Sequence record: PQ843332.1
Reading direction: 5' to 3' (one strand)
DNA from: Escherichia phage P-GXEC-L2P5
Length of the DNA: 64,000 nucleotides
Position 1 is the first letter of the stretch, and every line of letters begins with the position of its first letter. The notes beneath the pieces are model-generated. The model saw only the letters and a program-made list of their open reading frames with translations. It made no database searches and was not told where the DNA came from. The translations under genes and the position numbers were made by a program. This document shows positions 2,951-61,349 of the stretch, in pieces.

Positions 2951-3264
2951 GGTATATCTCCGATTGGTTAAGTTTAGGTGTCGGCAGTTAACTTCGTCGG
3001 TGGCCTTAACATATTGCCAGGTTGCGCGTTCTCCCGTTCGGGTAGTGGACCTGGTTATATAATCACGGTTGGGAATCCTGACACTTCGATCCGGCCCCTG
3101 CGTTGCCCCTCCTTTCGGGTAGTGGACCTGGTTATATAATCACGGTTGGGAATCCTGACACTTCGATCCGGCCCCTGCGTTGCCCCTCTCCAGTTTGCGT
3201 CCTGCATCCTGTCGACGAGGTGAATGATAGATTGGTTGCAGGATGGGTGTCAACAACTAATTTC

Positions 3265-3298
3265 AAAAAAAAAGCGCCGAGGCAAAATGCGACGGCGC
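3265..3298 (-). terminator. rho-independent terminator on the minus strand inside the control region
   Basis: Stem GCGCCG/CGGCGC with 13-nt loop followed on the minus strand by a 9-10 T run; stem conserved in unit 2. Confidence 0.5.
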
Positions 3299-3369
3299 TA
3301 ACCAATAAGAGACAATGAGACGGGAATTATTATTACACGCGTGCGCGCCCGTTTCAATATCCAAAGGAT

Positions 3370-3429: not shown

Positions 3430-3759
3430 ATGAATATCAAAGAAGCAATTGAAGTGTTATCTAATGCAATCCGCGGCGAAGCGGGTAAATCCTGGTATTA
3501 CACAAATGCGGTGGATACTCTGTTATTTGAAGTGTCCAGATTATCGCGTGCTGAGAAGGAGCTTACCGCGAAGCTGGAATTGCTCAACGGCACGGCAGCA
3601 AGCAAGCTGCAAAAACACAATGAAGAAATGGAAGAATACAAAAAGCAGGTTATCCGTTTGCGCAATGAGGGAAAGTCATGGGCAATGATCGCCGAGTTGA
3701 CCGGAATTAATCAGAGCACAGTGCGCTCCTGGGTACGCAATAATAAAACTTCAAAGTAA
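3430..3759 (+). CDS. HTH DNA-binding regulator
   Basis: C-terminal GKSWAMIAELTGINQSTVRSWV helix-turn-helix; first gene of the rightward operon. Confidence 0.6.
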   Translation: MNIKEAIEVLSNAIRGEAGKSWYYTNAVDTLLFEVSRLSRAEKELTAKLELLNGTAASKLQKHNEEMEEYKKQVIRLRNEGKSWAMIAELTGINQSTVRSWVRNNKTSK

Positions 3760-3846
3760 GGCAACGGCAATGAGCTTGATTAAATTCGCTGTAACACGAC
3801 CCGCTAAAAAAGGCGAAAAAGCCAGGTTCGAAGTAAGGCAACGGCA

Positions 3847-6111
3847 ATGAGCTTAATTAAATTCGCTGTAACACGACCCGCTAAAAAAGGCGAAAAAGCC
3901 AGGGCGGAAAACTTCCAGATGACTACCGAAGAGTTTTTCGAATTTATCAATGATGCGAAAGAAATCTCCTCGGTGCATATCAACAAAACGGAAGATAAAG
4001 CGGAGTATGCGCGCCGCAAGCGTAAGGCTGATGGGATTGTGGCTTATACCAGTGACGGATTACGCCGCAAGACCAGTGCGGTGGATCGCTCGATCCTGTT
4101 CTTCGATATTGACCGTACCGACACCCGCACCCTGCGCCGCTGCCGTAAGGCGTTCATCGACGCGGGACTGGAACATGTATTTCACACCACAACCGGCGAT
4201 CGCCACCCGCTGAAAGGTGGCACGCGTTGCGCTCGTTTCCTGGTGCTCACTGACAAGCCTGTACCGGCTGAAGACCTGGGCCGCGTCCAGTATGCACTAT
4301 TACACCAACTGGGCCTGTCAGATGTGGACTTCGACGATTGCACGAAAGACACAAACCGCCTTATGTACCTGCCTCACCAGCAATCGGTTGTTAAGTGTCA
4401 CTACGGCAAACGTGCCCGCGTCCGTCGTCTGCTTCGCCTGGCTGATAAGCTGGGAGTGGAAAAAGAGGAAGTACGCCGCGAGCTTACCCATGGCGACGAC
4501 GCAGTGGCAGACGGCATTCTGGACTGGTGCTTCCAGGCCGGATTCGAGGAGTTATCTTCTGGTCGCGGTTATGAAGTGCCGTGCCCGAACGAACATCTGC
4601 ATAGTGGCGAAGGGTCCACCGCTATCATGGTTAAGGATGGCGAGATCCGTTTCAAGTGTATGCACACCGGCAACGAGTGCTGTTCCGAACTGAACAGACA
4701 CCAGCACCTGGCGCTACGTCTTATCGGGATCCCGGACCACCTGAACGTCGAACCGCACAACATGTCACGTAAGCAAATCGCCGCCATCCTCCCAGGACTG
4801 GACGACGAGGAAGTGGAATCGTGCTATGCGCATATCGTTGATGCGGTCGGAGACGGCGACGAGTACGGCGGATGTACGGACGCAGACTTGGACAACGAGC
4901 CGGTTGCACTGTTCAGCAAGCACGACCCGATCATCGAGGGGTTGATTAACTTTAAATCGACCTGGTATCTTGCCGGTGAGTCGAACATCGGTAAGTCGTT
5001 CTATGTGCTGGGGCAAATGGGTGCGGTTGCCGCGGGGATTCCGTTCGGCGGCGCGAAGGTCGTCCAGTCTCATTGCTTCTATTTCGACGCGGAAGGTGGC
5101 GAAGCCTCCAACCAGCGTAAGGAAGCATTGCAGATTAAATATGAGCACGACCTGGACAAGCTGCACATTATCGATCTGCAATCACGCGGCTGGGATATCA
5201 CCAGCAAATCCGGCTTGCGTGAAGTTATCAGCTTCATCAACCGCACCGCTAACGGCGAGCCGGTTGGCCTGGTGGCGTTCGACTCACTCAACCAGACTGT
5301 TGCGCTGCGGTCCGCCGATGCTAAACCGTTCGACGAGAACAACGCCAGCGATATGGGTGAAGTGGTCAAAGCGCTGAAGGCCATTGCGGAAAATACAGGC
5401 GGCAGTGCGGGCGTCATCCACCACCCGGCGAAGGGTGCAAACGGCAGCAGATCTCCCCGTGGGTCCGGCGCGCTGCATGGCGCTGTCGATTCTGCGTTCT
5501 TCCTCGAGCAACCGGACGACAATCAGCCGGGCCAATTGAACCTGTATCACGAAAAGGCGCGTAACGGCATCAAGCAAGCGCCGCGCGGCTTCGTCCTGCT
5601 CAAGTGCAAGGTTAAGGTGGATCTCCGCAAGTCCGAAGCGTTCGAATCACACCAGTCCACCAGCACCGGGCCTGACTTCGGCGACGTGGTTGCCGGTTGG
5701 GACGTCAAGCCAATTGCATCCACGCCACGCGACGAGACTCTTTATCTCGTACCTGTCGCCCTGGCACCGTTCGCCATCGAACAGGCGAAGGCCGCGGGCA
5801 AGGCCGCAGTTAAGGATGAGAACGCCGCAGGACCGCGCAATGAAAAAGAGAAAGTGCTTTATGCGGCACTGGAAAAACTGATGGAAGATAACCCGGACCA
5901 TACCGGATTCAGTAAATCGGCAATTGTCCGCCAGGCGGGATTGGCAAAAGGTGGCACATCGACGAAGGCAATAGACGATATGGTGGAGCGCGGCGTGCTC
6001 GGTTTTTATACAGATCCGCACACCGGGGCCATCTATGGGTCGTCGAATATCGTCATTAAAACGAATATACCCATCACGCTTTCTGCGACCGATGACGATC
6101 TGAAAGATTAA
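3847..6111 (+). CDS. DNA primase/helicase (AEP primase-polymerase domain plus RecA-like P-loop NTPase)
   Basis: LFFDIDRTD and HVFHTTTG primase motifs; Walker A-like GESNIGKSFYVLG; 754 aa; start region duplicated at about 3770/3847. Confidence 0.85.
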   Translation: MSLIKFAVTRPAKKGEKARAENFQMTTEEFFEFINDAKEISSVHINKTEDKAEYARRKRKADGIVAYTSDGLRRKTSAVDRSILFFDIDRTDTRTLRRCRKAFIDAGLEHVFHTTTGDRHPLKGGTRCARFLVLTDKPVPAEDLGRVQYALLHQLGLSDVDFDDCTKDTNRLMYLPHQQSVVKCHYGKRARVRRLLRLADKLGVEKEEVRRELTHGDDAVADGILDWCFQAGFEELSSGRGYEVPCPNEHLHSGEGSTAIMVKDGEIRFKCMHTGNECCSELNRHQHLALRLIGIPDHLNVEPHNMSRKQIAAILPGLDDEEVESCYAHIVDAVGDGDEYGGCTDADLDNEPVALFSKHDPIIEGLINFKSTWYLAGESNIGKSFYVLGQMGAVAAGIPFGGAKVVQSHCFYFDAEGGEASNQRKEALQIKYEHDLDKLHIIDLQSRGWDITSKSGLREVISFINRTANGEPVGLVAFDSLNQTVALRSADAKPFDENNASDMGEVVKALKAIAENTGGSAGVIHHPAKGANGSRSPRGSGALHGAVDSAFFLEQPDDNQPGQLNLYHEKARNGIKQAPRGFVLLKCKVKVDLRKSEAFESHQSTSTGPDFGDVVAGWDVKPIASTPRDETLYLVPVALAPFAIEQAKAAGKAAVKDENAAGPRNEKEKVLYAALEKLMEDNPDHTGFSKSAIVRQAGLAKGGTSTKAIDDMVERGVLGFYTDPHTGAIYGSSNIVIKTNIPITLSATDDDLKD

Positions 6112-6255
6112 ATCCTGCGCGCATTGGTTGCCGGTATGGGAATTCCCATATCGCTAAAAGGTTAAATTTTGCGCGCATTGGTTGCCATTTTGAGTGTTTT
6201 TATCGGGTCGTATTGGTTGCCGTGTAGTGTAAATATAATGAATAGTTATGCAGTT

Positions 6256-6428
6256 TTATTGCATAAAGTAAGCGGGACAGAAAGCGGGACAAACAAGGGG
6301 CGGGACAAAGCGGGACAGCACCCCCGTCCCGCCCCGTATGGCGCGGCCTGGAGAGGAGCGGGACAGGCGGGACAACCCCCAGTCTTTCAGACTAGACGGG
6401 GGTCAGCGGCCCCCCTCGTCTGAGACTG
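6256..6428. repeat. iteron array: six GCGGGACA direct repeats preceded by TGCATAAA, then a GC-rich imperfect hairpin
   Basis: GCGGGACA at 6272, 6284, 6299, 6310, 6358, 6367; inverted repeat cagtctttcagactagacggggg / cccccctcgtctgagactg. Confidence 0.7.
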
Positions 6429-6645
6429 AATAAAATCCGGGGATTGCAAAATACACGGCAGCATGATGCGAAGTGCGGTCGCGGATGAACTAGGCAACCA
6501 ATGCGAGTTGCATTATGCGAAGTGAAAAATGCGGTTTGCAGTCACAGCAGATAGCGATCAACTTTTTCATGCGCGTGATTAATATTGGTTGCGTTCCGCC
6601 TGGCACCTTGCTATATTGGTTGCACCCCAACATGAGGACTGAACA

Positions 6646-8668: not shown

Positions 8669-9007
8669 ATGGATAAGCTAAACGAGTGGTTATTCGCCCT
8701 CGCATGTCTGGCTGGCGGCTTCGTAGGCGCACGCATTCATGGCGAGGCTACGAAAGGGCCGCTAAACTTCGTGTTATATATCGTGGTCGGCTTCTTGTGT
8801 GCCGTTTTTGGCGCTCCAGCGATTGCCGAGTGGGCGGGCTTATCTGGTGAGCGCACTGTCGCCGGTTTGGGGTTCGTAACTGCAATCTTCTGGATGCCAA
8901 TAGCCGCCCGGATCAGGGAGACTATTGAGTCGTTCCGACTTCCGGGGGCGCAAAATGATTATCTCCGTCCTGTTGTTTGTTATCATCGGGGCTTCGTCCC
9001 TGTTTAA
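8669..9007 (+). CDS. holin-like membrane protein; C-terminus differs from unit 2 by a 1-nt indel
   Basis: Two or three predicted transmembrane segments; directly upstream of the endolysin. Confidence 0.5.
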   Translation: MDKLNEWLFALACLAGGFVGARIHGEATKGPLNFVLYIVVGFLCAVFGAPAIAEWAGLSGERTVAGLGFVTAIFWMPIAARIRETIESFRLPGAQNDYLRPVVCYHRGFVPV

Positions 9008-9031
9008 CGTGTATGCGCCGGGGGGCGCAAA

Positions 9032-9277
9032 ATGATTATCTCCGTCCTGTTGTTTGTTATCATCGGGGCTTCGTCCCTGTTTAACGTGTATGCGCCGTCC
9101 GTCCGGGATGGCATTTTCGGTCGGGTGCTATATCTGCTAACGGCGATGATCTGCGTTATCGGATTGTTGCAAACAGGAGACGTATCTGACACCACCTGGA
9201 CCGCGTTAATCTGGCTGTTTGCATTGCGCACGCTGCGTAATGCTGTTTTGAATGGGGTAAAACATGCGATTCAGTGA
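9032..9277 (+). CDS. small membrane protein (holin/antiholin candidate)
   Basis: MIISVLLFVIIGASSLF and LLTAMICVIGLL hydrophobic segments; overlaps the endolysin start. Confidence 0.5.
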   Translation: MIISVLLFVIIGASSLFNVYAPSVRDGIFGRVLYLLTAMICVIGLLQTGDVSDTTWTALIWLFALRTLRNAVLNGVKHAIQ

Positions 9278-9755
9278 CAACGGTCTACGATTTACGGCAG
9301 CATGGGAGACGTTTAGCCCGGTGCCGTATTTCGCGACTAAGAAAGAGCAGGCCCGCGGCCTGTACACCTGGGGTTATGGTCACACTGGCACTAACCCGCC
9401 TCGAAGCATTACCCGCGCGGAAGCGCTGGAGCTACTTAAGCGCGATGTGGCGTATGCTGAGGACTGGGTGAACAAATACGCGCATAATAGCATTAACCAG
9501 GCGCAATTCGACGCGCTGGTGGACCTGGTTATCAATGCAGGTCAAGGTCCGATCGTACCGGACCATATTGCCAATGACTTCGACGACGCGGTGCGCTTGG
9601 GCGACTGGGCGAAGGTCCGTGCTACGCTGCCGCAGTTCCGCAAGCAAGGCGGCGAAGTGCTTAAGGGTCTGGTACGCCGTGCAATCGGCAGACAGGCGTT
9701 GTTTGATGGTAAGCAGTGGGACGTTGCCGAACGAATCGGTCGTAACGCTGCATAA
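9264..9755 (+). CDS. endolysin, GH24 lysozyme family
   Basis: GYGHTG and NQAQFDALVDLVINAG motifs typical of lambda R / P22 gp19-type lysozymes. Confidence 0.85.
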   Translation: MRFSDNGLRFTAAWETFSPVPYFATKKEQARGLYTWGYGHTGTNPPRSITRAEALELLKRDVAYAEDWVNKYAHNSINQAQFDALVDLVINAGQGPIVPDHIANDFDDAVRLGDWAKVRATLPQFRKQGGEVLKGLVRRAIGRQALFDGKQWDVAERIGRNAA

Positions 9756-9939: not shown

Positions 9940-9946
9940 ACAATCA

Positions 9947-9971
9947 AGCCCGGATAATACCGGGCTTTTTA
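9947..9971 (+). terminator. rho-independent terminator
   Basis: AGCCCGG-ataata-CCGGGCT followed by TTTTTAT. Confidence 0.75.
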
Positions 9972-9975
9972 TTGC

Positions 9976-10005
9976 TTGACTCGCAACCAACATAGGGGCC
10001 ATACT
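9976..10005 (+). promoter_or_regulatory. candidate sigma70-like promoter overlapping two GCAACCAA motifs
   Basis: TTGACT, 18-bp spacer, CATACT (TATACT in unit 2). Confidence 0.4.
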
Positions 10006-10176
10006 GCAACCAACCAACGAGAGGAGTAATCAAGATGGCACGTAAAGATATTTGGGTATTGGCAATCTGGACCACCGCAGCTTTCATCGGCATGGTTATT
10101 TGCGAATTGATATAGCCCGCCGCCATATGGACCGTGGTATATTGTCCACGGTCAACTAATCAGGAATTAATTAAAT

Positions 10177-11473
10177 ATGCACCCGCAAACTAAAATTACC
10201 GATGAGCAATTGATCACAGAAATTCAGGCAGGGACTACGGTTAAAGAGATTGCGAAGAAATACGGCATTGCACTTCGAAATGTCTATATGCGCAAAGCCC
10301 GCCTGTCGAAAAAGGGGATTGGTCATGGCAATTATGCCGTGATCCGTAAGCGCGTTGCCGATGGCTTTGGGGTTAAGCGCGTATCGGCCCTGGTGCGCGG
10401 TAATGGCGAAGAGGTCATGTCGTGGGTCATCACTGAGCAGGACAAGGAGCGCCAACTCGAAGCTATGCGCGCTGTTGTCGAGGGTATGAACAGCGAAATC
10501 ACACCGGCAGCGCCAGTAAACGCCCCGCCAGTACCGATCCCATGCGCGCTGTTGTCGAGGGTATGAACAGCGAAATCACACCGGCAGCGCCAGTAAAAGC
10601 CCCGCCAGTACCGATCCAGGCGCTAGACTTGCTCAACCTGTACACCGTGTCCGACTTCCACCTGGGTATGCTGGCATGGGGCGAGGAGACTGGCGAAGAT
10701 TGGGATATGGCGATCGCCGAAGACCTGTTCTACCGCTGGTTTGTCGAAGCCTTCGCCCGCGCACCGGACGCAGGCACTGCCGTGATCAATATCCTCGGCG
10801 ATATGGCGCACTTTGATAGCCTTGATGCCGTCACACCGGCAAGCGGTCACGTATTGGACGCCGACACCCGATACCAGAAGTTAGTCCGCTACATGATCCG
10901 CATGGTGCGCAACGTGGTAGACCTGGCGCTGCAAAAACACCACAAAGTCAAACTGCTAATCGTCCAGGGTAATCATGACGAGTCAGGCATGATTTGGCTT
11001 GCTGAGATGTTCAACACGCTGTACGAGAACGAGCCGCGCGTCGATGTGGATACGATGAGTCGGGCATGATTTGGCTTGCTGAGATGTTCAACACGCTGTA
11101 CGAGAACGAGCCGCGCGTCGATGTGGATACGTCCCCGGACGTCTACAAGATGGTGCAGCACGGTAAGACCACACTATTTTTCCACCACGGGCACAAAGCG
11201 CGATTTGACGCTATCGAGCCGGTCATGATTTCGAAATTTCGTGAGGCGTTCGGGTCCAGCCAGTACAGCTATGCGCACGTAGGACACCTGCACCACCAGA
11301 AGATTGTCGAATCGCGCAACATGATTGTTGAACAGCACCGCACGCTTGCCGCGAAGGATGCCTACGCCAGCCGAGGCGGTTGGATGAGCGGACGCAGTGC
11401 AAACGTGATAACCTATAGCGCCAACTACGGCGAAGTAGCGCGCTTAACCATTAGCCCGGAAATGTTGAAATGA
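10177..11473 (+). CDS. HTH domain fused to calcineurin-like metallophosphoesterase; frame broken by duplications near 10490..10600 and 10980..11075
   Basis: N-terminal HTH TVKEIAKKYGIALRNVYMRKARL; phosphoesterase motifs DFHLGM, GDMAHFD, GNHDE, HHGH, GHLHH; reads as one ORF in unit 2 apart from a single duplication. Confidence 0.7.
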
Positions 11474-11715
11474 TCAGACAAGTATTCATGAGCACGCAGG
11501 CCACCCGCCTGAAAGAACTACGCAAGCAACTCGAAGGCTTGCGCCGATTTGAACGAACGGCAGCGGCAGTCGGAATGTCGATGGACGAGAGGATCGAAAT
11601 ACTGTCGCAAATACGCTACACAGAAGGCGCGATAAGAGAAGTACAAAGCATGTTAACCCGATACTACGGGCGCGGATACTATCGCAAATACGCTACACAG
11701 AAGGCGCGATAAGAG
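11470..11715 (+). CDS. small hypothetical protein present only in unit 1
   Basis: ORF with internal artefact duplication; the whole ~290-bp segment is missing from unit 2. Confidence 0.35.
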
Positions 11716-11767
11716 AAGTACAAAGCATGTTAACCCGATACTACGGGCGCGACGTTTAAACCGCGCA

Positions 11768-11793
11768 GCCCCACCGATTTGGTGGGCTTTTTT
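11768..11793 (+). terminator. rho-independent terminator
   Basis: CCCACC-gattt-GGTGGG followed by CTTTTTTGT. Confidence 0.7.
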
Positions 11794-12428: not shown

Positions 12429-13890
12429 TGCGTAACTATGCGGCAGAACACCGCGCACTGGAACGCGCGATCGCAAAGCGTAACCGACCGCCACGCCCGA
12501 CACGCGTTGCGCAGGCCGTCCGCCTTTACCAGCCAGATTGCCTTCCGCACCAGGTCGAACTGCTGCGTGACACGAAGACTAAAATCCTCGGCCTGTGTTC
12601 CGGCTTCGGTGGTGGGAAGTCGTGGGTCGCAGCCCGTAAGGTAATCCAGCTTCTGACACTTAACCCCGGTCATGATGGCATCGTAACAGAACCGACGATT
12701 CCCCTCCTGGTTAAAATCATGTATCCGGAATTGGAAAAGGCATTCGACGAGGCGGGCTTCCGGTGGAAGTTCAATAAGCAGGACAAGATCTATAACGTGC
12801 TTGTGAAAGGCAAATGGACCCGCGTTATCTGTGAGTCAATGGAGAACTATACCCGCCTGATCGGGGTTAATGCCGCGTGGATTGTTGCCGACGAGTTCGA
12901 TACCACGAAGCAAGACGTCGCGCTGGCGGCATATCACAAATTGCTCGGTCGTCTGCGTGCTGGCTTCGTCCGCCAGTTCGTCATCGTGTCAACGCCTGAA
13001 GGCTACCGGGCGATGTATCAAATTTTCGAAGTGGAGAAGGATAGCCAGAAGCGTTTGATCCGGGCGAAGACCACCGATAACCACCACTTACCGGCAGACT
13101 TTATCGACACGCTGCGCAGCCAATACCCGGCTAACCTGATTGATGCGTACTTGAACGGCCTGTTTGTCAACCTTACGTCGGGCGCGGTGTACAAGATGTT
13201 CAACCGGGAGGAGAACGCCAGCACCGAAGAAGTGCAGCCGGAAGACACGCTGATTATCGGCATGGACTTTAACGTCACGAAGATGGCGGCGGTCGTGTAC
13301 GTCAGACGGCAGCGCATCACCGAAAACAAGGAGTTCCGCGACGAGATCCACGCAGTGGATGAATTTGTGGACCTGTTTGATACCCCGGCTATGATTGAGG
13401 CGATCGAGGAGCGCTACCCCGATCATTGTGCTGCCGGTCGTGTTGTCGTTTACCCGGATAGCAGCGGCAAGTCTCGCAAGACTGTTAACGCATCGTCGTC
13501 AGATATCGCACAACTGGAAGACGCGGGCTTCGAGGTGGAATACGACAGTGTTAACCCACCTGTGAAAGACCGATTGATCGCGATGAATACTATGATGTGC
13601 AACTCGAAGGGTGTGCGCCAGTATTTGTTAACCCGCCTGTGAAAGACCGATTGATTGCGATGAATACGATGATGTGCAACTCGAAGGGTGTGCGCCAGTA
13701 TTTTGTCAACCTGGATAAATGCCCTACACTAGCGAAATGTCTGGAACAGCAGGTTTACGACCTGAAGAAAGGCGAGCCGGATAAAACCGCCGGTGTGGAC
13801 CACATGAACGATGCCGCGGGCTATCCAATTGCGCACCTGTTCCCAGTGATTCGCCCAATCGCCGTTGTTCCAACTGTAGACTTCTACTAA
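12428..13890 (+). CDS. terminase large subunit (ATPase plus nuclease); 3' part frame-broken by duplication near 13560..13680
   Basis: Walker A GFGGGKS, Walker B IVADEFD, C-terminal nuclease region VDHMNDAAGYP. Confidence 0.85.
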
Positions 13891-24673: not shown

Positions 24674-25160
24674 TGAAGCGGGACAAGCGGGACGTCCCGT
24701 TTTGTCCCGCCCCTCAAAAACTGCATACTTATTTACTATTATTGCATAAACTAAAAGCGGGACAAGCGGGACGTCCCGATCTGGCACCCCTCTGAAAAGC
24801 GCATACCTATTCAGTTTTACTGCATAAACCAAACGGGACAAAAAGCGGGACAAACAAGGGGCGGGACAAAGCGGGACAGCACCCCCGCCCCGCCAGTGCT
24901 GCCGCGGGGTTTAGCCGATCGGGACAGGCGGGACAAAGCCCAGTCTTTCAGACTAGACGGGGGTCAATGGCCCCCCTCGCGCGGTTTTTAGCCGATCGGG
25001 ACAGGCGGGACAAAGCCCAGTCTTTCAGACTAGACGGGGGTCAATGGCCCCCCTCGTCTGAGACTGAATAAGGTTTGTTTTAAATTCGCTGATACAATGT
25101 TTCAGACTAGACGGGGGTCAATGGCCCCCCTCGTCTGAGACTGAATAAGGTTTGTTTTAA
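24674..25160. repeat. non-coding iteron/hairpin region between the chaperone and tape measure genes
   Basis: agcgggacaagcgggacgtcccg twice (24677..24699, 24756..24778) with 12-bp palindrome CGGGACGTCCCG; GCGGGACA x4 at 24833..24895; GC-rich hairpin repeated; TGCATAAA boxes; AT-rich tract 24720..24760. Confidence 0.7.
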
Positions 25161-25211
25161 ATTCGCTGATACAATGTCAACCGGCAACTGCATAAAAAAG
25201 GGGGCTGCATA

Positions 25212-49624: not shown

Positions 49625-49867
49625 TCAAGCATTTTCATTAAAAAGATTTCGGGTAACGTAGTTGGTCGCGTTCTCGATCCAGCTTAACGGCGGGCGGTTG
49701 ATGTTCTTCTCCACCCAATCGACGGCAGCTTCGCTATAGCCGTCATCCAGCCAGCGGGTCGGATGTCTAATCATCCATGCCACCATTAACACGCCTTGCA
49801 CACAATGCAGGATAAAGCCCAGCGCGCCGATAACAAACATCAATAAGATTGCGAATACTTTATTCAT
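49625..49867 (-). CDS. small membrane protein (80 aa)
   Basis: Hydrophobic N-terminus MNKVFAILLMFVIGALGFIL; same gene as the partial ORF at 1..169. Confidence 0.45.
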   Translation of the reverse strand: MNKVFAILLMFVIGALGFILHCVQGVLMVAWMIRHPTRWLDDGYSEAAVDWVEKNINRPPLSWIENATNYVTRNLFNENA

Positions 49868-51367
49868 TGCTTAAGTCCTCGTCAGTAGCTACAGACCACG
49901 CAGGGCGCGGGTCGTCGATGGGTGCTAATACCGGTTTAGCTGGTGCGCGCGTGATTTTATCACACAGCTTCGCCCATACTTTCGGCTTCTCGTCCTTCAA
50001 TACCTTCTCGGCATCAGTAGGGCTGAGTAATGTTTCTTTGTACATCACATCGCGCTTGATCCGGGCCTTCGTGAAGATTTCAATCACTTCGCTTTCGTCC
50101 GCCCACTTGCGAATCCCTTCCTTACCTGCAACCATCTTGAGGCCCAGCGATTCGCCGTCGCCCGCCATCACAGCCTTGAATACCGCGGACTCGATAGCCT
50201 TGATGTGCTGGCGCATTGCGTCCAGGCCTTCATAAGCCTTGCGCAGTTCCGCGGCGGTCATAGCGCCGGGGGCCGCTTCTTTCTTGCCACGCTTCGCACG
50301 TCGTGCCGCTTTGCGGGCTTCGCGGGCCATATTGCGGTCGTGATTGGCGCATTCTTCCTCTGTCGCAATACTCACGTCGTCGCCCAGGTCTTCGTCTGTT
50401 GCCGTTGGTGGGGTCATCGTGCCGATTGCAGCCTTAGCGCGGGCGCTACACTGATCCGCAAATCTGCACCACTGACACGCATCAACGCTCGGTCGGAAGT
50501 CGGCGCGGGTGAGTCCCTTTTTTCCGCGGGAGTACGCTTCCAGGGCGGCGATAGCACGCTTGGACGCAAACTTAGCGAATATCTCCAGGGCTTCTACCGA
50601 AATATCCCACTCCGACGCCCCGCCGCAATACGGCTGGAAGATAACAAGGCGCACGGTTGTAATGTCGTACATAGTTTTCAGCTTGCGCAGCAAGCCCAGC
50701 GCATACAACATAAGCTGTTTGTTTTCTTTCGCCTCGACCTTATGCCGCCCCGTCTTCAGGTCGCCAACAATCAGCATGTACGTGCCGTCGGTCTTCTTCA
50801 TGACCATGACCATATCGGCAGTACCGAACGTCTTAACCCGGTTGCCGTCGATCTCGAAGCCTGAGTGAAGGACGCGGGTCAGATCGGCGCGCATCTCAAG
50901 CTGAACAAACTCCGCCACTTCGAGGAGCGGTCGCCAGTGGTCGATGTACGCGTCGCACTGTTTCACCATGTCGTCGTTGACCAATACGCCGCCTTTCGGT
51001 GCTTTAGGGTGTGCCTTTCGATGTACGCGTCGCACTGTTTCACCATGTCGTCGTTGACCAGTACGCCGCCTTTCGGTGCTTTCGGGTGGGCCTTTACCGG
51101 CCCCTTACCTTCGTTCTCTACGTAGCACCCTTTGTACGTCTTAGCGGTTATCAGCTTCTCCCCGGCAATGATGCGGTTTAGCACCACTTCAGATACGGTG
51201 TGCATACTCGTACCGTTAATCGCCGCTTGCCCGGATTCGTTCGGGATATCTTTTTCCACCACCAGGGCGGCGGGACACCCCATCCATTTTTTAGCACCGG
51301 ATGGGCCAAGTAATGAGTGTTCTGTATTGCTACCGGATTGCGTTTTACGTTTTGGTTTAATCGCCAT
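49860..51367 (-). CDS. unit 2: DUF2800-type nuclease; frame broken by duplication near 50950..51070
   Basis: ORFs 49860..51035 and 50963..51367 with the same motifs as 162..1746. Confidence 0.7.
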
Positions 51368-51443
51368 TATTCCACCCGTGTAAACTGGACAATTACATAT
51401 TTCACATTACCGGATTGCGTTTTACGTTTTGGTTTAATCGCCA

Positions 51444-51623
51444 TTATTCCACCCGTGTAAACTGGACAATTACATATTTCACATTCGCCAAGCCCGCTTT
51501 TTCGACACGGCTGCGCACTTCATGCTGCGCATCGGTCCAGCACATCGAGGCGTCCTTGTTAACAACAAGAAAAGAGAAATGGTCGTTTAATTCGTGGCAA
51601 GTTGCCAGCACGAAAAATTTCAT
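51444..51623 (-). CDS. unit 2: small hypothetical protein (diverged homolog of 1823..2002)
   Basis: Hand-translated MKFFVLATCHELNDH... Confidence 0.35.
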   Translation of the reverse strand: MKFFVLATCHELNDHFSFLVVNKDASMCWTDAQHEVRSRVEKAGLANVKYVIVQFTRVE

Positions 51624-51874
51624 TATTTTGTCTCCCAGCGGTCAATTGTTTTTGCTTCGGATGCAACGGCGAAGCGAACATATTCCAGATTGGAGTCAGC
51701 CCAAATATAAAAATCGGGGTTAGTAAAGGTGGTGCGCTTAATTTGCGCGGGGGTGTTGCGGCGTTTATCTATTACGGCAACGCGGGATTGAAAGCTGCCG
51801 ATGCGTTCGAATAGCCAATAGTACGGGCGCTGGTCGCGGGAATCCACCGCCTCGATTAGCGTGAATCGTGCCAT
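51623..51874 (-). CDS. unit 2: hypothetical protein (homolog of 2002..2253)
   Basis: ORF, 83 aa. Confidence 0.55.
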   Translation of the reverse strand: MARFTLIEAVDSRDQRPYYWLFERIGSFQSRVAVIDKRRNTPAQIKRTTFTNPDFYIWADSNLEYVRFAVASEAKTIDRWETK

Positions 51875-51922
51875 TGTCTCGTCCTCTAAAAAGAGGCCCG
51901 CTAATATGCGGGCCGGATAATA

Positions 51923-52048
51923 TTAATCTTCACCGCCGAGTTGTTTATAAACCTCGTCCGGGTCGTCGCCTCTTTCTTCGCAGAAGGCGGTGAATGCCGC
52001 CCAATTTTCTGCTATGAAATCGAGCATGATTCTCATTTCATAGTCCAT
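51923..52048 (-). CDS. unit 2: small hypothetical protein (homolog of 2302..2427)
   Basis: Same start/stop arrangement as unit 1. Confidence 0.3.
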   Translation of the reverse strand: MDYEMRIMLDFIAENWAAFTAFCEERGDDPDEVYKQLGGED

Positions 52049-52052
52049 GATA

Positions 52053-52644
52053 TTAATCTTCCAGTTCGAAATAAGTTTCGACGATTTCTTTTAGCTCTTT
52101 GTGGAAGTCTTCGACGTCGTCATCTTCCAGCTTAGCGATTGATTTGATCTCGAACGATTCCAGAAGGTCGTCGAATTCGTCGTTCGCATCGTCGTCATCG
52201 CCACCGGCGATAATCGCGGCATACTGTTTGATTTCGTCGCGCATCTCCGCCAGCGGATCGGCATCTTTCTTACCTTTGCCTTTCGCCGGTGCTTTCTTAG
52301 ACTTAGCCGGTTTTTCGTCTTCGGCATCGGCATCGTCGTCGTCATCTTCTACGACTTCTTTTTTGGCCTTACCTTTCGCCGGTGCTTTTTTGGTTTTCGC
52401 CGGTGCTTCGTCTTCAGCGTCGTCATCTTCTACGACTTCTTTTTTTTACCTTTCGCCGGTGCTTTTTTGGTTTTCGCCGGGGCTTCGTCTTCAGCGTCGT
52501 CATCTTCTACGACTTCTTTTTTGGCCTTAGACGGCTTCTTGTCTTCCTGTTTACCAACGGCAGCGCCAACGGTTTCATAATGCTTAGCGATGATTTCCAG
52601 TGCTACTACGCCGCGAGTGATCAGGTTTACGATTTGCTCAAACA
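52053..52644 (-). CDS. unit 2: acidic/lysine-rich repeat protein; frame broken by duplication near 52370..52500
   Basis: ORFs 52053..52244 and 52430..52873 share the KPAKAKKAPAKGK repeats. Confidence 0.5.
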
Positions 52645-53123
52645 TGGTATATCTCCGATTGGTTAAGTTTAGGTGTCGACCATTAACTTCGTCGGTGGCC
52701 TTAACATAGTGCCAGGTTACGCGTTCTCCCTTTCGGGTAGTGGACCTGGTTATATAATCACGGTTGGGAATCCTGACACTTCGATCCGGCCCCTGCGTTG
52801 CCCCTCTCCAGTTTGCGTCCTGCATCCTGTCGACGAGGTGAATATTAGATTGGTTGCAGAAGGGAGTCAACAACTAATTTCAAAAAAAAAGCGCCGAAGC
52901 AAAATGCGACGGCGCTAACCAATAAGAGACAATGAGACGGGAGTATTATTACACGCGTGCGCGCCCGTTTCAATATTCCAAAGGAGTTGACACCACCAAT
53001 AAGAGACAATGAGACGGGAGTATTATTACACGCGTGCGCGCCCGTTTCAATATCCCAAAGGAGTTGACACCCTGCGGTTTTAGGTGTAGTTTCATTGGTC
53101 ATTAACCAACCGGAGACAGAATA

Positions 53124-53453
53124 ATGAATATCAACGACGCAATCGAAATGCTAACGAAGACTGTCTGCAGTGAGACTAGCCGGTCCTGGGCGTATACCGA
53201 TGCCGTGGGGGCGGTGCTATTTGAAATCGAACGTCTGCGACTTACCGAAAAAGAATTGCGCGCCAGGCTGGAATTACTCAACGGTACGGCAGCCAGCAAG
53301 CTGCAAAAGCACAATGAAGAAATGGAAGAATACAAAAAACAGGTTATCCGTCTACGTGAGGAAGGTAAATCCTGGGCTATGATCGCCGAGCTAACCGGAA
53401 TCAACCAGAGCACCGTGCGCTCCTGGGTACGCAATAATAAAACTTCGAAGTAA
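53124..53453 (+). CDS. unit 2: HTH regulator (diverged N-terminus, conserved C-terminal HTH)
   Basis: 109-aa ORF homologous to 3430..3759. Confidence 0.6.
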   Translation: MNINDAIEMLTKTVCSETSRSWAYTDAVGAVLFEIERLRLTEKELRARLELLNGTAASKLQKHNEEMEEYKKQVIRLREEGKSWAMIAELTGINQSTVRSWVRNNKTSK

Positions 53454-53463
53454 GGCAACGGCA

Positions 53464-55959
53464 ATGAGCTTAATTAAATTCGCTGTAACACGACCCGCTA
53501 AAAAAGGCGAAAAAGCCAGGGCGGAAAACTTCCAGATGACCACCGATGAATTTTTCGAATTTATCAATGATGCGAAAGAAATCGCGAAAAAGCCAGGGCG
53601 GAAAACTTCCAGATGACCACCGATGAATTTTTCGAATTTATCAATGACGCGAAAGAAATATCATCGGTGCATATCAACAAGACCGAGGATAAAGCGGAGT
53701 ATGCGCGCCGCAAGCGTAAGGCCGATGGCATCGTAGCGTATACCAGTGACGGCTTACGCCGCAAGACCAGCGCGGTGGACCGCTCGATCCTGTTCTTTGA
53801 TATTGACCGCACCGACACTCGCACCTTACGCCGCTGCCGTAAGGCGTTCATTGACGCGGGTCTGGAACACGTATTCCACACAACCACCGGCGACCGCCAC
53901 CCGCTTAAAGGCGGCACGCGTTGCGCTCGCTTCCTGGTACTCACTGATAAGCCGGTCCCGGCTGAAGACCTGGGCCGTGTCCAGTATGCGCTATTACATC
54001 AACTTGGTCTGTCGGATGTGGACTTCGACGATTGCACGAAAGACACAAACCGCCTGATGTACCTGCCGCACCAGCAATCGGTTATTAAGTGCCACTACGG
54101 CAAACGTGCCCGCGTCCGTCGTCTGCTTCGCCTGGCGGATACGCTTGGCGTGGAGAAGGAAGAAGTACGCCGCGAGCTTACCCAGGGCGACGACGCAGTG
54201 GCGGACGGGATTCTGGACTGGTGCTTCCAGGCAGGATTCGAGGAGTTATCTTCCGGTCGCGGTTATGAAGTGCCGTGCCCGAACGAACATCTGCACAGCG
54301 GCGAAGGGTCGACGGCTATCATGGTCAAGGATGGCGAGATCCGTTTCAAGTGTATGCACACCGGCAACGAGTGTTGCTCTGAGCTGAACAGACACCAGCA
54401 CCTGGCGCTACGTCTTATCGGGATACCGGACCACCTGAACGTCGAGCCGCACAACATGTCACGTAAGCAAATCGCCGCCATCCTCCCAGGGCTGGACGAC
54501 GAGGAAGTCGAATCCTTATATGAACATATTGTTGATGCGGTTGGCGACGGCGAAGAATACGGCGTGTGCACCGATGCGGATCTGGATAACGAGCCGGTCG
54601 CACTGTTGTTGATGCAGTTGGCGACGGCGAAGAATACGGCGTGTGCACCGATGCGGATCTGGATAACGAGCCGGTCGCACTATTCAGTAAGCACGACCCG
54701 ATCATCGAAGGCCTGGTCAACTTCAAATCGACCTGGTACATGGCTGGCGAGTCGAACATCGGTAAATCGTTCTACGTGCTGGGCCAAATGGGCGCGGTTG
54801 CCGCGGGGATTCCGTTCGGCGGTGCGAAGGTCGTCCAGTCTCATTGCTTCTATTTCGACGCGGAAGGTGGCGAAGCCTCCAACCAGCGTAAGGAAGCATT
54901 GCAGATCAAATATGAGCACGACCTGGACAAGCTGCACATTATTGACCTGCAATCACGCGGCTGGGATATCACCAGCAAATCAGGCTTGCGTGAAGTTATC
55001 AGCTTCATCAACCGCACCGCTAACGGCGAGCCGGTTGGCCTGGTGGCGTTCGACTCACTCAACCAGACTGTTGCGCTGCGGTCCGCCGATGCAAAACCGT
55101 TCGACGAGAACAACGCCAGCGATATGGGCGAAGTGGTCAAAGCGCTGAAGGCCATTGCGGAAAATACAGGCGGCAGTGCGGGCGTCATCCACCACCCGGC
55201 GAAAGGTGCAAACGGCCGCAGATCTCCCCGTGGGTCCGGCGCGCTGCATGGTGCTGTCGATTCTGCGTTCTTCCTGGAGCAACCGGACGACAACCAGCCA
55301 GGTCAATTGAACCTGTATCACGAAAAGGCACGTAACGGCATCAAGCAAGCGCCGCGCGGCTTCGTCCTGCTCAAGTGCAAGGTTAAGGTGGATCTCCGCA
55401 AGTCCGAAGCGTTCGAAGCCCACCAGTCCACCAGCACCGGGCCAGACTTCGGCGATGTGGTTGCCGGTTGGGACGTCAAACCAATTGCGTCCACCCCGCG
55501 CGACGAGACTCTATACCTCGTACCGGTAGCCCTGGCACCGTTCGCGATAGAACAGGCGAAGGCGGCGGGCAAAGCCGCAGTTAAGGAAGAGAACACCGCC
55601 GGTCCGCGCAACGAAAAAGAGAAAGTGCTTTATGCGGCCCTGGAAAAACTGATGGCAGATAACCCTGACCATACTGGATTCAGTAAATCGGCAATTGTAC
55701 GCCAGGCGGGACTCGCTAAGGGTGGCACTTCGACGAAGGCAATAGACGATATGGTCGAGCGCGGCGTGATTGGTTTCTATACAGATCCGCACACCGGGGC
55801 CATATATGGGTCGTCGAATTTAGTCATCAAATCTGATATCCCCTGATTGGTTTCTATACAGACCCGCACACCGGGGCCATATATGGGTCGTCGAATTTAG
55901 TCATCAAATCGGAGATCCCCATAACGCTTTCGGCGACCGATGACGACCTGAAAGACTAA
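53464..55959 (+). CDS. unit 2: DNA primase/helicase; frame broken by duplications
   Basis: ORFs 53613..55148 and 54641..55846 homologous to 3847..6111. Confidence 0.8.
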
Positions 55960-56030
55960 ATCCTATTTTGAGTGTTTTTAGCTGGTCGCATTGGTTGCCG
56001 TGCAGTATAAATATAGTGAATAGTTATGCA

Positions 56031-56210
56031 ATAAAACTGCATAAAGTAAGCGGGACAAAAAGCGGGACAAACTTGGGGCGGGACAAAGCGGGACAGCACC
56101 CCCGTCCCGCCCCGGATGACGCGGCCTGGAGAGGAGCGGGACAGGCGGGACAACTCCCAGTCTTTCAGACTAGACGGGGGTCAGCGGCCCCCCTCGTCTG
56201 AGACTGCATA
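56031..56210. repeat. unit 2: GCGGGACA iteron array plus GC-rich hairpin
   Basis: Same TGCATAAA / GCGGGACA / hairpin architecture as 6256..6428. Confidence 0.7.
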
Positions 56211-56422
56211 AAATCCGGGATTGCAAAATACACGGCAGCACATTGGAAATCGCGGTCGTCGATGAACTGGGCAACCAATGCGAGTTGCAGAATGTGGTGT
56301 GAAAAATGCAGTTTGCAGTCACAGCTGATAGCGATCAACTTTTTCATGCGCATGATTAATATTGGTTGCATTCATGCCAGCACCCTGCTAGATTGGTTGC
56401 ACACCAACATGAGGGCTGAACA

Positions 56423-56749
56423 ATGAAAGCGATTATCTGGAATTACGCAATGGCTATGGCGAAGGCACAAGAAGCGGCGGAGTTCGCCGGGGAGGGGGCG
56501 GAAGCAGTAGAGAGACTATCGGCAGCGTGGTCCGTTGTTCGCGTCACGCAGCAGGCCATCGCCTGTATGCTTGAGCGCCGCTTCGACACGATGGCGGAGA
56601 TCCAGCCGTTGGCGAACGCTATCCAGGACTACGCGCTTGCATTTGCCCGTGAACGCCTGGCGTATCGCTTCGGGATCGGAGAGACGGCAGTGACAAACGT
56701 TGCCCGGATTAAAGCCCAGCGTGAGCTATTCGCCCAGCTTGCGAAATAA
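56423..56749 (+). CDS. unit 2: hypothetical protein (homolog of 6646..6972)
   Basis: ORF, 108 aa. Confidence 0.55.
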   Translation: MKAIIWNYAMAMAKAQEAAEFAGEGAEAVERLSAAWSVVRVTQQAIACMLERRFDTMAEIQPLANAIQDYALAFARERLAYRFGIGETAVTNVARIKAQRELFAQLAK

Positions 56750-57024
56750 GAGGCCAAAATGACCCGTAGACGCGCAAAACAGCTTTCGTGGCATATCCCC
56801 CTGCATTGCATACGAATATGGGCTAAGAATGCGAATGCGGGGGACTCTGTGTACTGGTGCTATCGCGACGACGTTAAGCCGTTGACGCAGACTCGCTACT
56901 TGCACCAGTTCGCCGCGCAACATGATTTCTATGTGCGGACCTCCTTGCAACCAATGGGGATCCGTATTACATTACGCCGGAAGCCCGCAGTCGAGCGGGT
57001 AGGCAAACACTGGAGACTGAGCAA

Positions 57025-57567
57025 ATGAAATTACTATTCCGCCGAAAATCAGATGGCCGCATTCTTAAGCCAATACAGACCCTTGACACCCATGTGCGAC
57101 TTCACCACGCCGCAAGCGATCGTGTCTGGTGGGCGAATAAGGCAAAGCTGCCGGAGAAATACGAAATCCTCACGCATGATATTGAGCGCGGCGATGTGCT
57201 GCGTGATATTCGCGACGGGCAATTGTGGGTCGTTGAGCACACCAGCCAGCACGGCTTGCGTATGCAAACCCGCAAGGGCGGAGTAGTGGGTAACATACAG
57301 AGGGTTATGACGTACTTCGGGCTAATCCACTACGAGCGCGTGGGGCGCAAATACTGCCTGCGCAACCGCCAGCCTCATGAGCGCGCAACCTACGACTCCC
57401 ACCAGGTGCAAGCGAAGATGGGCCGCGCCGTACACCAAATCGTCAATCGCTTTGATGCCGTGACGAACGCACAACGCCATGCGCAGGAATACGGTGTTGG
57501 ATTCATCCAGGTGGAACGAGACGGCAGCATGAAAGCCATCGACCCGCGCTCGGTGATTCTGAAATGA
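57025..57567 (+). CDS. unit 2: hypothetical protein (homolog of 7537..8109)
   Basis: ORF, 180 aa. Confidence 0.55.
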   Translation: MKLLFRRKSDGRILKPIQTLDTHVRLHHAASDRVWWANKAKLPEKYEILTHDIERGDVLRDIRDGQLWVVEHTSQHGLRMQTRKGGVVGNIQRVMTYFGLIHYERVGRKYCLRNRQPHERATYDSHQVQAKMGRAVHQIVNRFDAVTNAQRHAQEYGVGFIQVERDGSMKAIDPRSVILK

Positions 57568-57710
57568 GTGCGACGATCCGTGATATGCTTCAGCACAACC
57601 GCTTTGAGATAGGCGGTCGGGTGTTTCGCAATTACTTCGTGGCGCGTGCATGGGCGCGCCATATTGGCAAACCGGAAGGGGCAATTCGATGCTATACGTC
57701 TTCGCGGTAG
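57564..57710 (+). CDS. unit 2: small hypothetical protein (homolog of 8106..8252)
   Basis: ATGA overlap conserved. Confidence 0.3.
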   Translation: MSATIRDMLQHNRFEIGGRVFRNYFVARAWARHIGKPEGAIRCYTSSR

Positions 57711-57774
57711 TATGTGGCGGTAGTCTGGCGGCCCTGGTGCTGTTGGCGTCGGTTATTAGTCTGGTTAAATACCT

Positions 57775-58074
57775 ATGGGGCAGATTATGATTCATGATGT
57801 GATTTATTGGTTTGGTATGGCCAGCATGTTATGCCTGGTTACGGGAGTGCTGGGCGCAATATGGGTATTCCTGGTATGGCCTGCGGTGGAAGCTGCCAGC
57901 ATTACCCGGATGACATTCGAGATCTACAAGCGCCGTGGAATAACGGAGCACCCGACCAGGCTTCGGATGTGGTGGCTGTGGTATCGGGATATGATAGGCG
58001 GTCGAACATTCGAAGCCGTCCGCTCATCCGGGTGGGAGTGGAAAGGCGTCGGCAAGTTGTCCGTTTTCGATTAA
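57775..58074 (+). CDS. unit 2: small membrane protein
   Basis: Identical in protein sequence to 8317..8616. Confidence 0.45.
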   Translation: MGQIMIHDVIYWFGMASMLCLVTGVLGAIWVFLVWPAVEAASITRMTFEIYKRRGITEHPTRLRMWWLWYRDMIGGRTFEAVRSSGWEWKGVGKLSVFD

Positions 58075-58203
58075 TTATGCAAGCGTGATATAGTCCCAGT
58101 GAGCTCGGGTGGGAGTGGAAAGGCGTCGGCAAGTGGTCCGTTTTCGATTAATTATGCAAGCGTGATATAGTCCCAGTGAGCTAAAACTTACTGGGACTTT
58201 TTT

Positions 58204-58494
58204 ATGGATAAGCTAAACGAGTGGCTATTCGCCCTGGCATGTCTGGCGGGTGGCTTCGTAGGCGCACGCATTCATGGTGAGGCTACGAAGGGGCCGCTAA
58301 ACTTCGTTTTGTATGTTGTAGTTGGCTTCCTGTGTGCCATATTTGGCGCACCGGCTATTGCCGAGTGGGCTGGTTTGTCGGGTGAGCGCACTGTCGCCGG
58401 TTTGGGCTTCGTAACTGCGATCTTCTGGATGCCAATCGCCGACCGGATCAGGGAGACTATTGCGTCGTTCCGACTTCCGGGGGGCGCAAAATGA
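58204..58494 (+). CDS. unit 2: holin-like membrane protein
   Basis: 96-aa ORF ending with ATGA overlap into the next gene. Confidence 0.5.
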   Translation: MDKLNEWLFALACLAGGFVGARIHGEATKGPLNFVLYVVVGFLCAIFGAPAIAEWAGLSGERTVAGLGFVTAIFWMPIADRIRETIASFRLPGGAK

Positions 58495-58736
58495 TTATCT
58501 CCGTCCTGTTGTTTGTTATCATCGGGGCTTCGTCCCTGTTTAACGTGTATGCGCCGTCCGTCCGGGATGGCATTTTCGGTCGGGTGCTGTATCTGTTAAC
58601 GGCAATGGTCTGTATTATCGGATTGTTGCAAACAGGAGACGTATCGGATACCACCTGGACCGCGTTAATCTGGCTGTTTGCATTGCGCACCCTGCGTAAT
58701 GCTGTTTTAAATGGGGTAAAACATGCGATTCAGTGA
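58491..58736 (+). CDS. unit 2: small membrane protein
   Basis: Homolog of 9032..9277. Confidence 0.5.
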   Translation: MIISVLLFVIIGASSLFNVYAPSVRDGIFGRVLYLLTAMVCIIGLLQTGDVSDTTWTALIWLFALRTLRNAVLNGVKHAIQ

Positions 58737-58799
58737 TAACGGTCTTCTGGCTGTTTGCATTGCGCACCCTGCGTAATGCTGTTTTGAATGGGGTAAAAC

Positions 58800-59445
58800 A
58801 TGCGATTCAGTGATAACGGTCTACGATTTACGGCAGCCTGGGAGGCTTTCAGCCCGGTGCCGTATTTCGCGACCAAGAAAGAGCAGGCCCGCGGCCTGTA
58901 CACCTGGGGCTATGGTCACAGGCTTTCAGCCCGGTGCCGTATTTCGCGACCAAGAAAGAGCAGGCCCGCGGCCTGTACACCTGGGGTTATGGTCATACCG
59001 GCACTAATCCGCCTCGAAGCATTACCCGCGAGGAAGCGCTGGCACTGCTCAAGCGCGATGTGGCGTATGCTGAGGACTGGGTTAACAAATACGCACATCC
59101 GAGCATTAACCAGGCGCAATTCGACGCGCTGGTGGACCTGGTAATCAACGCCGGTCCGGGTCCGATCGTACCGGATGACGTCGCGAATGATTTCGATGAT
59201 GCGGTGTGGTGGACCTGGTAATCAACGCCGGTCCTGGTCCGATCGTACCGGATGACGTCGCGAATGATTTCGATGATGCGGTACGGTTGGGCGACTGGGC
59301 GAAGGTCCGTGCTACGCTGCCGCAGTTCCGCAAGCAAGGCGGCGAAGTGCTTAAGGGTCTGGTACGCCGTGCAATCGGCAGACAGGCGTTGTTTGATGGT
59401 AAGCAGTGGGACGTTGCCGAACGAATCGGTCGTAACGCTGCATAA
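58800..59445 (+). CDS. unit 2: GH24 endolysin; frame broken by duplications
   Basis: ORFs 58934..59221 and 59206..59445 carry the GYGHTG and NQAQFDALVDLVINAG motifs. Confidence 0.75.
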
Positions 59446-59461
59446 TACGAGGTAACACAGT

Positions 59462-59629
59462 ATGTTAAAAAGTATTCTTGATCATAATGCGGACGCGCTT
59501 GCTGCACTGGCTAAAACCGAAGATCCGGGCGCTCGCGCTATCATCGCGGACTCTATAAACCACGCTGGGGTCTTCGATGCGAAGCTGCCTAGCCCACCAC
59601 CGCAGGAGGAATCTGGTCCTGCAGCGTAA
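59462..59629 (+). CDS. unit 2: small hypothetical protein (homolog of 9772..9939)
   Basis: ATG 59462; same proline-rich C-terminus. Confidence 0.3.
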   Translation: MLKSILDHNADALAALAKTEDPGARAIIADSINHAGVFDAKLPSPPPQEESGPAA

Positions 59630-59943
59630 ACAATCAAGCCCGGGGGGTCTTCGATGCGAAGCTGCCAAGCCCACCACCGCAGGAGGAATCTGGTCCTGCA
59701 GCGTAAACAATCAAGCCCGGAATTAACCGGGCTTTTTATTGCTTGACTTGCAACCAACATAGACTCTATACTGCGACCAATCAACGAGAGGAGTAATCAA
59801 GATGGCACGTAAAGATATTTGGGTATTAGCGATCTGGACCACCACGGCTTTTATCGACATGGTTATTTGCGAATTGATATAGCCCGCCGCCATACGGACC
59901 GTGGTATATTGTCCGCGGTCCACTAATCAGGAATTAATTAAAT

Positions 59944-61163: not shown

Positions 61164-61349
61164 CGGCGACCCGTAACCAGCCCAGCCTGCCGATTTGGTG
61201 GGCTTTTTTGTGCCTGTTATAATCCCCGTTAGATGGCAGGGCCGTCTCCTATGTTGCCGATGGCTGCCGATTTGGTGGGCTTTTTTGTGCCTGTTATAAT
61301 CCCCCTTAGATGGCAGGGCCGTCTCCTATGTTGCCGATGGTCGGCGCAT

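Follow-up and report, generated by a model that had tools for sequence, protein, structure and literature searches.

A helix-turn-helix–metallophosphoesterase gene in Dhillonvirus DNA, reconstructed from a copy broken by artefactual 77-nt duplications

Between the lysis and packaging genes of the 64,000-nt stretch of DNA analyzed here (the window), the initial annotation placed a single gene at 10177-11473 that joins an N-terminal helix-turn-helix (HTH) to a calcineurin-like phosphoesterase. The locus raises two questions, namely whether the two domains are fused in one protein and which activity such a protein might have. A DNA-targeted nuclease, a phosphatase or a regulator with enzymatic output had been considered.

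The reading frame and the 77-nt duplications

The proposed ends of the gene were confirmed: the start codon ATG is at 10177 and the stop codon TGA at 11471-11473. However, the interval is not one ORF in the window. Three ORFs in three frames were found, 10177-10566 (129 aa), 10542-11069 (175 aa) and 11066-11473 (135 aa), which carry the HTH part, motifs I-III and motifs IV-V of the phosphoesterase, respectively. Thus, the single-ORF reading of 10177-11473 was rejected. Two tandem duplications of 77 nt were detected in the interval by Tandem Repeats Finder. An insertion of 77 nt does not add a whole number of codons, and each of the two therefore shifts the frame, the first between the N-terminal module and the catalytic domain and the second between motifs III and IV.

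Duplications of the same period occur across the whole window. They were counted at 63-65 sites, depending on the threshold, at about one per kb and with 0-4 mismatches each; examples are 391-544, 8944-9097, 13549-13711, 25023-25177 and 63829-63983. A whole-window scan at ten further periods between 50 and 100 detected no duplications. The window is a Dhillonvirus genome, and in the region of the gene it shares 99.7% identity with Escherichia phages slur05 and slur06. In the BLAST comparison with the complete slur05 genome, all the duplications were absent from slur05, and the alignment stepped back by 76-77 nt in the reference at every junction. Most genes of the window are broken by the duplications, including that of the essential large terminase (TerL). 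The window holds about 1.3 copies of the Dhillonvirus genome in two units about 49.7 kb apart (unit 1, 1-49700; unit 2, 49700-64000), a spacing that equals a genome of about 44 kb plus about 5 kb of duplicated segments. Unit 1 is a mosaic relative to slur05 (at least 99% identical to about 22.3 kb, thereafter 80-97%), and unit 2 is a different, related strain (84-97% identical). The duplication sites differ between the two units. A biological origin of the repeats was rejected on these grounds, that is, the single period, the absence from slur05, the unit-specific sites and the broken TerL gene. Since all of them are absent from the near-identical isolate slur05, the period-77 duplications in the window are artefacts. 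They look like untrimmed k = 77 overlaps in the path of an assembly graph, although the 0-4 mismatches per duplication are not explained by such an overlap alone. The window is not a faithful genome, and readings that depend on the frame need the collapse of its approximately 65 period-77 duplications first. The gene and its artefacts are as follows.

10177-11473, + strand: HTH-metallophosphoesterase gene, orthologue of slur05 gp35 (T1 p16 family, PHROG 704), defined by the ORF list, collapse and alignment
10465-10617, no strand: artefactual 77-nt tandem duplication no. 1, two copies with 1-2 mismatches, absent from slur05 and unit 2
10980-11131, no strand: second artefactual 77-nt tandem duplication, which immediately follows motif III, absent from slur05 and unit 2
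59944-61163, + strand: unit-2 copy of the gene, with one 77-nt duplication at 60167-60321; 380 aa after collapse

When one copy of each duplication was deleted, an intact ORF of 1143 nt (380 aa) without internal stop was obtained, whichever copy was kept. The collapsed gene is 99.7% identical to slur05 gp35 (YP_009208121.1), which is a single 1143-nt CDS for a protein of the same length. A three-way DNA alignment showed that the window gene is slur05 gp35 with two 77-nt insertions, and these duplications are the only difference of the window copy from gp35. Separate genes for the two domains in undisturbed sequence would have spoken against the initial annotation; slur05 has one CDS. Thus, the HTH-metallophosphoesterase fusion is genuine once the artefact is removed.

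The gene had also been described as conserved in unit 2, and this was borne out. The collapsed proteins of the two units are identical at 369 of 380 residues (97%), and the codon differences between them comprise 66 synonymous against 11 non-synonymous changes. Furthermore, each unit's copy is intact exactly where the other unit's copy is broken. The two-module protein is under purifying selection. The gene, whose phage family is very common, is already deposited and annotated: for slur05 gp35, RefSeq gives the name "DNA repair exonuclease", and GenBank has "Calcineurin-like phosphoesterase superfamily domain protein".

The phosphoesterase core and the N-terminal module

The complete set of calcineurin-like motifs (DxH, GD, GNHD, H and GHxH) was found in the gene, as had been claimed. 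The parts of the protein map to the window as follows.

10201-10311, + strand: tri-helical HTH, residues 9-45, with the basic recognition helix LRNVYMRKARLSKKG
10366-10539, + strand: rest of the N-terminal module, namely a beta-hairpin (64-88), a long helix (90-107) and a Pro-rich linker (about 108-120), from the alignment and the model
10618-11473, + strand: metallophosphoesterase core, residues about 121-380, which runs to the C-terminus
10653-10661, + strand: motif I, D134-x-H136 (DFH)
10797-10802, + strand: motif II, G182-D183
10968-10979, + strand: motif III, G239-N-H-D242
11183-11194, + strand: motif IV, H285-H-G-H288 (HHGH)
11282-11293, + strand: motif V, G318-H-L-H321 (GHLH)

We aligned 127 diverse representatives of the family, which are 33-81% identical to the reference. 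D134, H136, G182, D183, T194, N240, H241, H286, G318 and H321 were invariant among them, and H186, D188, D242, H285, H288 and H319 were nearly invariant. All five motifs of the classical metal-ligand set are thus present, and selection on them is strict.

The protein matched PHROG 704 ("DNA repair exonuclease") at E = 6.5e-161, with residues 5-380 aligned to positions 2-390 of the 390 positions of the profile. This match is far above chance, and the family name itself is an annotation by similarity. An exhaustive HMMER search against 1.84 billion cluster representatives matched 4674 clusters at a cut-off of E <= 1e-3, and 1132 when the cut-off was E <= 1e-30; the majority are 360-420 aa long. 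With the window protein alone, the Pfam models Metallophos_2 (1e-4) and Metallophos (1e-3) did not reach their gathering thresholds, and the NCBIfam search gave only matches at noise level, with none to SbcD or Mre11. Literature searches found no published experimental characterization of the T1 p16 / PHROG 704 family. The papers on Metis and PUA-Cal-HAD were rejected as studies of this family because they concern host metallophosphatases.

The AlphaFold2 model made with the family alignment (mean pLDDT 93, pTM 0.81) has a beta-sandwich phosphoesterase core at residues 121-380. Fold comparison gave the following scores.

PolD DP1 proofreading exonuclease: 15.6
S. aureus SbcD: 15.1
T. maritima Mre11: 15.0
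LpxH: 13.9
MJ0936: 13.5
GpdQ: 12.6
Rv0805: 12.2
PPP-type protein phosphatase PP5: 9.1

Additional entries of Mre11, SbcD and polymerase B-subunits scored 12-13.5, and Foldseek concurred in placing Mre11 and DP1 at the top. The nucleases are favoured by a small margin, and the fold search is hence not decisive for the substrate. The sequence-based PDB searches detected no solved relative: the search with the single protein gave only spurious matches to designed armadillo-repeat proteins, and that with the family profile gave only matches below the threshold. The family profile matched T. maritima Mre11/SbcD only at E = 0.32. The initial annotation had proposed a domain search to separate protein phosphatases from Mre11/SbcD-like nucleases. 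The modelled core is best placed with the nuclease/diesterase branch (Mre11 / SbcD / PolD-DP1-like), by likeness and not by membership. Among the activities that had been considered, nuclease or diesterase likeness is thus supported, whereas a PPP-type protein phosphatase is not.

A protein phosphatase of the PPP family such as lambda NinI, or a transcription factor with an enzymatic sensor or output domain, is given very little weight. The calcineurin-like superfamily is common to the window protein and to lambda NinI and the PPP Ser/Thr phosphatases, and the HTH resembles those of sigma region 4 and LuxR regulators. The genomic position is also comparable in one lambdoid Pseudomonas phage; MPK9 has the gene in a nin-like region that precedes the lysis genes, which is also where lambda has NinI. 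Of the PPP signatures GDxHG, GDxVDRG and GNHE, the window protein lacks the first two, in place of which it has SDFHLG and GDMAHFD.

In the AlphaFold2 model, the helices of the HTH are at residues 9-17, 22-29 and 33-45, and the third is strongly basic. This tri-helical fold with a basic recognition helix is of the resolvase / LuxR / sigma region 4 type. The Pfam models HTH_28, GerE and HTH_7 matched the window protein alone at 0.02-0.05, below their gathering thresholds. When members of the family were scanned singly, HTH models were matched with a best E-value of 1.5e-9 (HTH_1 in 26 members, HTH_8 in 16, HTH_50 in 15 and Sigma70_r4_2 in 14), and the KP36 homologue exceeds the gathering score of Sigma70_r4_2. 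G77 and W83 in the beta-hairpin are near-invariant in the 127 diverse representatives. In each of the 127 aligned representatives, motif I is preceded by at least 109 residues, and the architecture of an N-terminal module of about 110-140 aa with an HTH followed by a metallophosphoesterase core is shared in the family; short relatives of 274-341 aa may comprise the phosphoesterase alone. The fusion in one protein that had been proposed from the window is found both in the single 1143-nt CDS of slur05 and in the collapsed ORF of 380 aa.

The retention of this DNA-binding domain bears on another possible substrate. The enzyme could be a phosphodiesterase of small nucleotides, such as cyclic or linear defence signalling nucleotides, dinucleotides or dNTPs, with the HTH serving for localization or regulation. 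We consider this quite unlikely. A DNA-binding domain kept in the 127 aligned representatives and in the homologues of the named phages is hard to explain in that case, the top fold matches are DNA nucleases, and no PADLOC defence model was matched.

In Rogunavirus phiJLA23 (locus 2989-3321), all that is left is a stand-alone ORF for the 110-aa N-terminal HTH module; the phage lacks the phosphoesterase domain as well as the adjoining genes for the kinase and the phosphatase. Either the ORF arose by natural truncation, or it encodes a free-standing HTH protein.

Genomic neighbourhood and distribution

The gene lies between the lysis and packaging genes, as the initial annotation had it: the holin genes and the endolysin gene (9264-9755) are upstream, and the genes of the small and large terminase subunits, TerS (from 11856) and TerL (from 12428), are downstream. 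The order in Dhillonvirus slur05 is two holins, endolysin, a 55-aa ORF, gp35, a 70-aa ORF, and the small and then the large terminase subunits. The following features flank the gene in the window.

9946-10005, + strand: upstream boundary, with a terminator-like hairpin and T-run (9946-9967) after the lysis cassette and a match to a sigma-70-like promoter (9976-10005), both by consensus scan only
10035-10115, + strand: unannotated ORF of 26 codons, MARKDIWVLAIWTTAAFIGMVICELI
11470-11759, + strand: small downstream ORF, counterpart of slur05 gp34 (70 aa, phrog_20931), which overlaps the stop codon of the HTH-metallophosphoesterase gene by 4 nt (ATGA)
11770-11786: terminator-like hairpin before TerS, by consensus scan only

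The ORF at 10035-10115 has a good Shine-Dalgarno sequence (GAGGAG) and is located between the terminator and promoter that follow the lysis genes and the HTH-metallophosphoesterase gene. Its translation looks like a small hydrophobic peptide.

In Dhillonvirus the HTH-metallophosphoesterase gene and the overlapping 70-aa ORF make up a small unit, with the terminator-like hairpins on either side. Because of the ATGA overlap, the gp34 counterpart is probably translationally coupled to the HTH-metallophosphoesterase gene. In the window this counterpart is broken by the 77-nt duplication at 11599-11751. Jerseyviruses have a 76-aa ORF in the same arrangement with a 4-nt overlap. However, the small proteins of Dhillonvirus and Jerseyvirus are unrelated, so that a conserved small downstream partner was ruled out; none is kept across the lineages compared.

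A tblastn search of the phage collection matched 2063 records, 1671 of them at a coverage of at least 80%, and about 150 Dhillonvirus records were matched at 95% or more. The carriers include Dhillonvirus, Kagunavirus, Jerseyvirus, T1-like Drexlerviridae (T1 p16 and KP36 gp63), Casjensviridae, Vibrio and Pseudomonas phages and the SP6-like podovirus Era103. slur05 gp35, T1 p16 and KP36 gp63 (PHROG 704) represent the same gene family, and gp35 has the same position as the window gene, from the lysis cassette to the terminase. The T1-like homologues show 43-48% identity along the entire protein, the N-terminal HTH included.

The surroundings of the gene vary. In Jerseyviruses it is in an island among the tail genes, and in Vibrio and Rhodobacter phages it adjoins the lysis genes. 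Pseudomonas phage MPK9 has an unrelated DUF3310 "nucleotide kinase" gene directly upstream. In KP36, the gene is followed by genes for a Pnkp-type HAD phosphatase (PF25109, 1.3e-18) and a dNMP kinase (phrog_139), and then by the lysis cassette. Era103 has this set of three as well, with 48%, 51% and 38% identity to the KP36 genes, between exo/endonuclease genes and a DNA ligase gene. The three-gene cassette is located as follows.

KP36, locus 3992-6226: HTH-metallophosphoesterase, Pnkp-type HAD phosphatase and dNMP kinase
Era103, locus 3504-5750: the same three genes

Since KP36 and Era103 share the three-gene set, the comparison suggests that the cassette moved between phage families, by horizontal transfer of a nucleotide-salvage or end-processing module.

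The variable position also bears on packaging. The HTH might recognize the pac or cos region, and the enzyme might cut or process concatemers as an accessory nuclease of the terminase, a function in which HNH proteins encoded beside HK97-type terminases help. The proximity to the terminase genes in Dhillonvirus is not general, as the gene is away from them in T1-like phages, Era103, MPK9, Jerseyviruses and the Rhodobacter phage. Between the gene and TerS the window has a terminator-like hairpin, and the TerS match stands far down the list of generic HTH domains. A packaging nuclease is therefore most improbable.

Elsewhere in the window, a repeated intergenic element, GGGACAGGCGGGACAA with a long GC-rich hairpin (CAGTCTTTCAGACTAGACGGGGGTCA...CCCCCCTCGTCTGAGACTGAATAA), was found at 6341-6433, 24902-25148 and 56119-56211. 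There are two loci per genome, and two loci in slur05 gave cross-matches to the element, for which a role in regulation or termination is possible.

Possible role and comparison with known systems

The reading to which we lean, with somewhat less than even confidence, is that of a DNA-tethered nuclease that acts independently of Rad50 and takes part in DNA breakdown and nucleotide salvage. The HTH would hold the enzyme on DNA, and a di-metal centre (with D134, H136, D183, N240, H286, H319 and H321 as ligands) would hydrolyse DNA phosphodiester bonds, with H241 as the putative transition-state histidine. The enzyme would act without a Rad50/SbcC partner and without the capping domain of Mre11. 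During infection it would most likely break down or process DNA and thereby supply nucleotide salvage, analogous to T5 A1; salvage is suggested because the gene is repeatedly linked with those of (d)NMP kinases and a 3'-phosphatase.

The differences from the cellular nucleases are considerable. Mre11/SbcD structures (PDB 3qg5, 7dog, 6s6v and 4o43) are only 12-19% identical to the window protein, and the Mre11/SbcD sequence models are not matched. The C-terminal capping domain of Mre11/SbcD is absent, the chain ending with the core at residue 380. By annotation, no SMC-like ATPase that could serve as a Rad50/SbcC partner is encoded among the 58 annotated genes of slur05. Instead of these, the protein has the N-terminal HTH module. 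Archaeal DP1 has an OB fold and acts inside the polymerase complex with DP2; neither has a counterpart in the window protein. The identity to the PolD DP1 3'-5' proofreading exonuclease (PDB 5ihe) is 13%.

These features also weigh on the possibility that the protein is an Mre11-like nuclease for end processing or repair of DNA (or RNA). Such an enzyme, together with the Pnkp-type phosphatase, the kinase and the ligase, would trim ends for recombination-dependent replication or end-healing, and would not degrade host DNA in bulk. This is unlikely, although it deserves clearly more weight than the packaging, phosphatase and small-nucleotide readings. It is opposed by a phage that lacks a Rad50/SbcC-like partner and a protein that lacks a capping domain. 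Furthermore, Dhillonvirus already carries a separate exonuclease for recombination (phrog_69, the 476-aa 'exonuclease' of slur05) and a Gp2.5-like annealing protein, and the gene is variable in position and often stands beside lysis rather than replication genes.

The DNA-tethered nuclease has its closest precedent in T5 A1 (phrog_1745, a predicted metallophosphatase), which is likewise a phage metallophosphoesterase without a Rad50 partner. A1 is a pre-early gene of T5 and is needed also for the second-step DNA transfer. In a 2026 preprint it was shown to be necessary and sufficient for host DNA degradation and was described as resembling nucleases of double-strand-break (DSB) repair and proofreading subunits of polymerases (10.64898/2026.04.02.716235). 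These structural neighbours are the same as those found for the window protein. However, T5 A1 is of a different family: hhalign aligned only 19-31 columns around motif III, with a probability of 19-23%, and the part of A1 that precedes motif I is longer by about 170 residues. With T5 A2 nothing was aligned. Homology to A1 or A2 was therefore rejected, and the comparison is kept as an analogy.

According to the re-annotation of TLS (PMC11447400), the host genome is degraded by T1 and TLS and its nucleotides are used again, through gene products that have yet to be identified; a "proof-reading exonuclease (gp66)" is listed there among the possible genes of replication or recombination. We suspect that gp66 is a candidate TLS member of the T1 p16 family. 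A wider proposal is that the T1 p16 / slur05 gp35 family is the nuclease that destroys the host chromosome and recycles its nucleotides in T1-like, Dhillonvirus-like and related siphophages. It would be an Mre11-like DNase, independent of Rad50 and tethered by its HTH, that parallels T5 A1 in function and often travels in one mobile cassette together with genes for a Pnkp-type phosphatase and a dNMP kinase. This remains doubtful, clearly more so than the DNA-tethered nuclease as such. The finding itself matters little, as annotated near-identical copies are present in roughly 150 Dhillonvirus genomes and the family in more than 2000 phage genomes. However, the family is large and its active site strictly conserved, and it is a reasonable and cheaply testable candidate for host-DNA degradation in T1-like phages, because of the nuclease-like fold, the fused DNA-binding domain, the linkage to nucleotide kinases and the T5 A1 precedent.

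In T5 A1 itself, no HTH was seen in Pfam. Four T5 A1 homologues that are 45-48% identical (P0343, P0346, P0373 and P0385) carry an N-terminal HTH of the resolvase/homeodomain type at residues about 8-42. Since several T5 A1 homologues have such a domain, an HTH before a stand-alone phage metallophosphoesterase is a recurring design.
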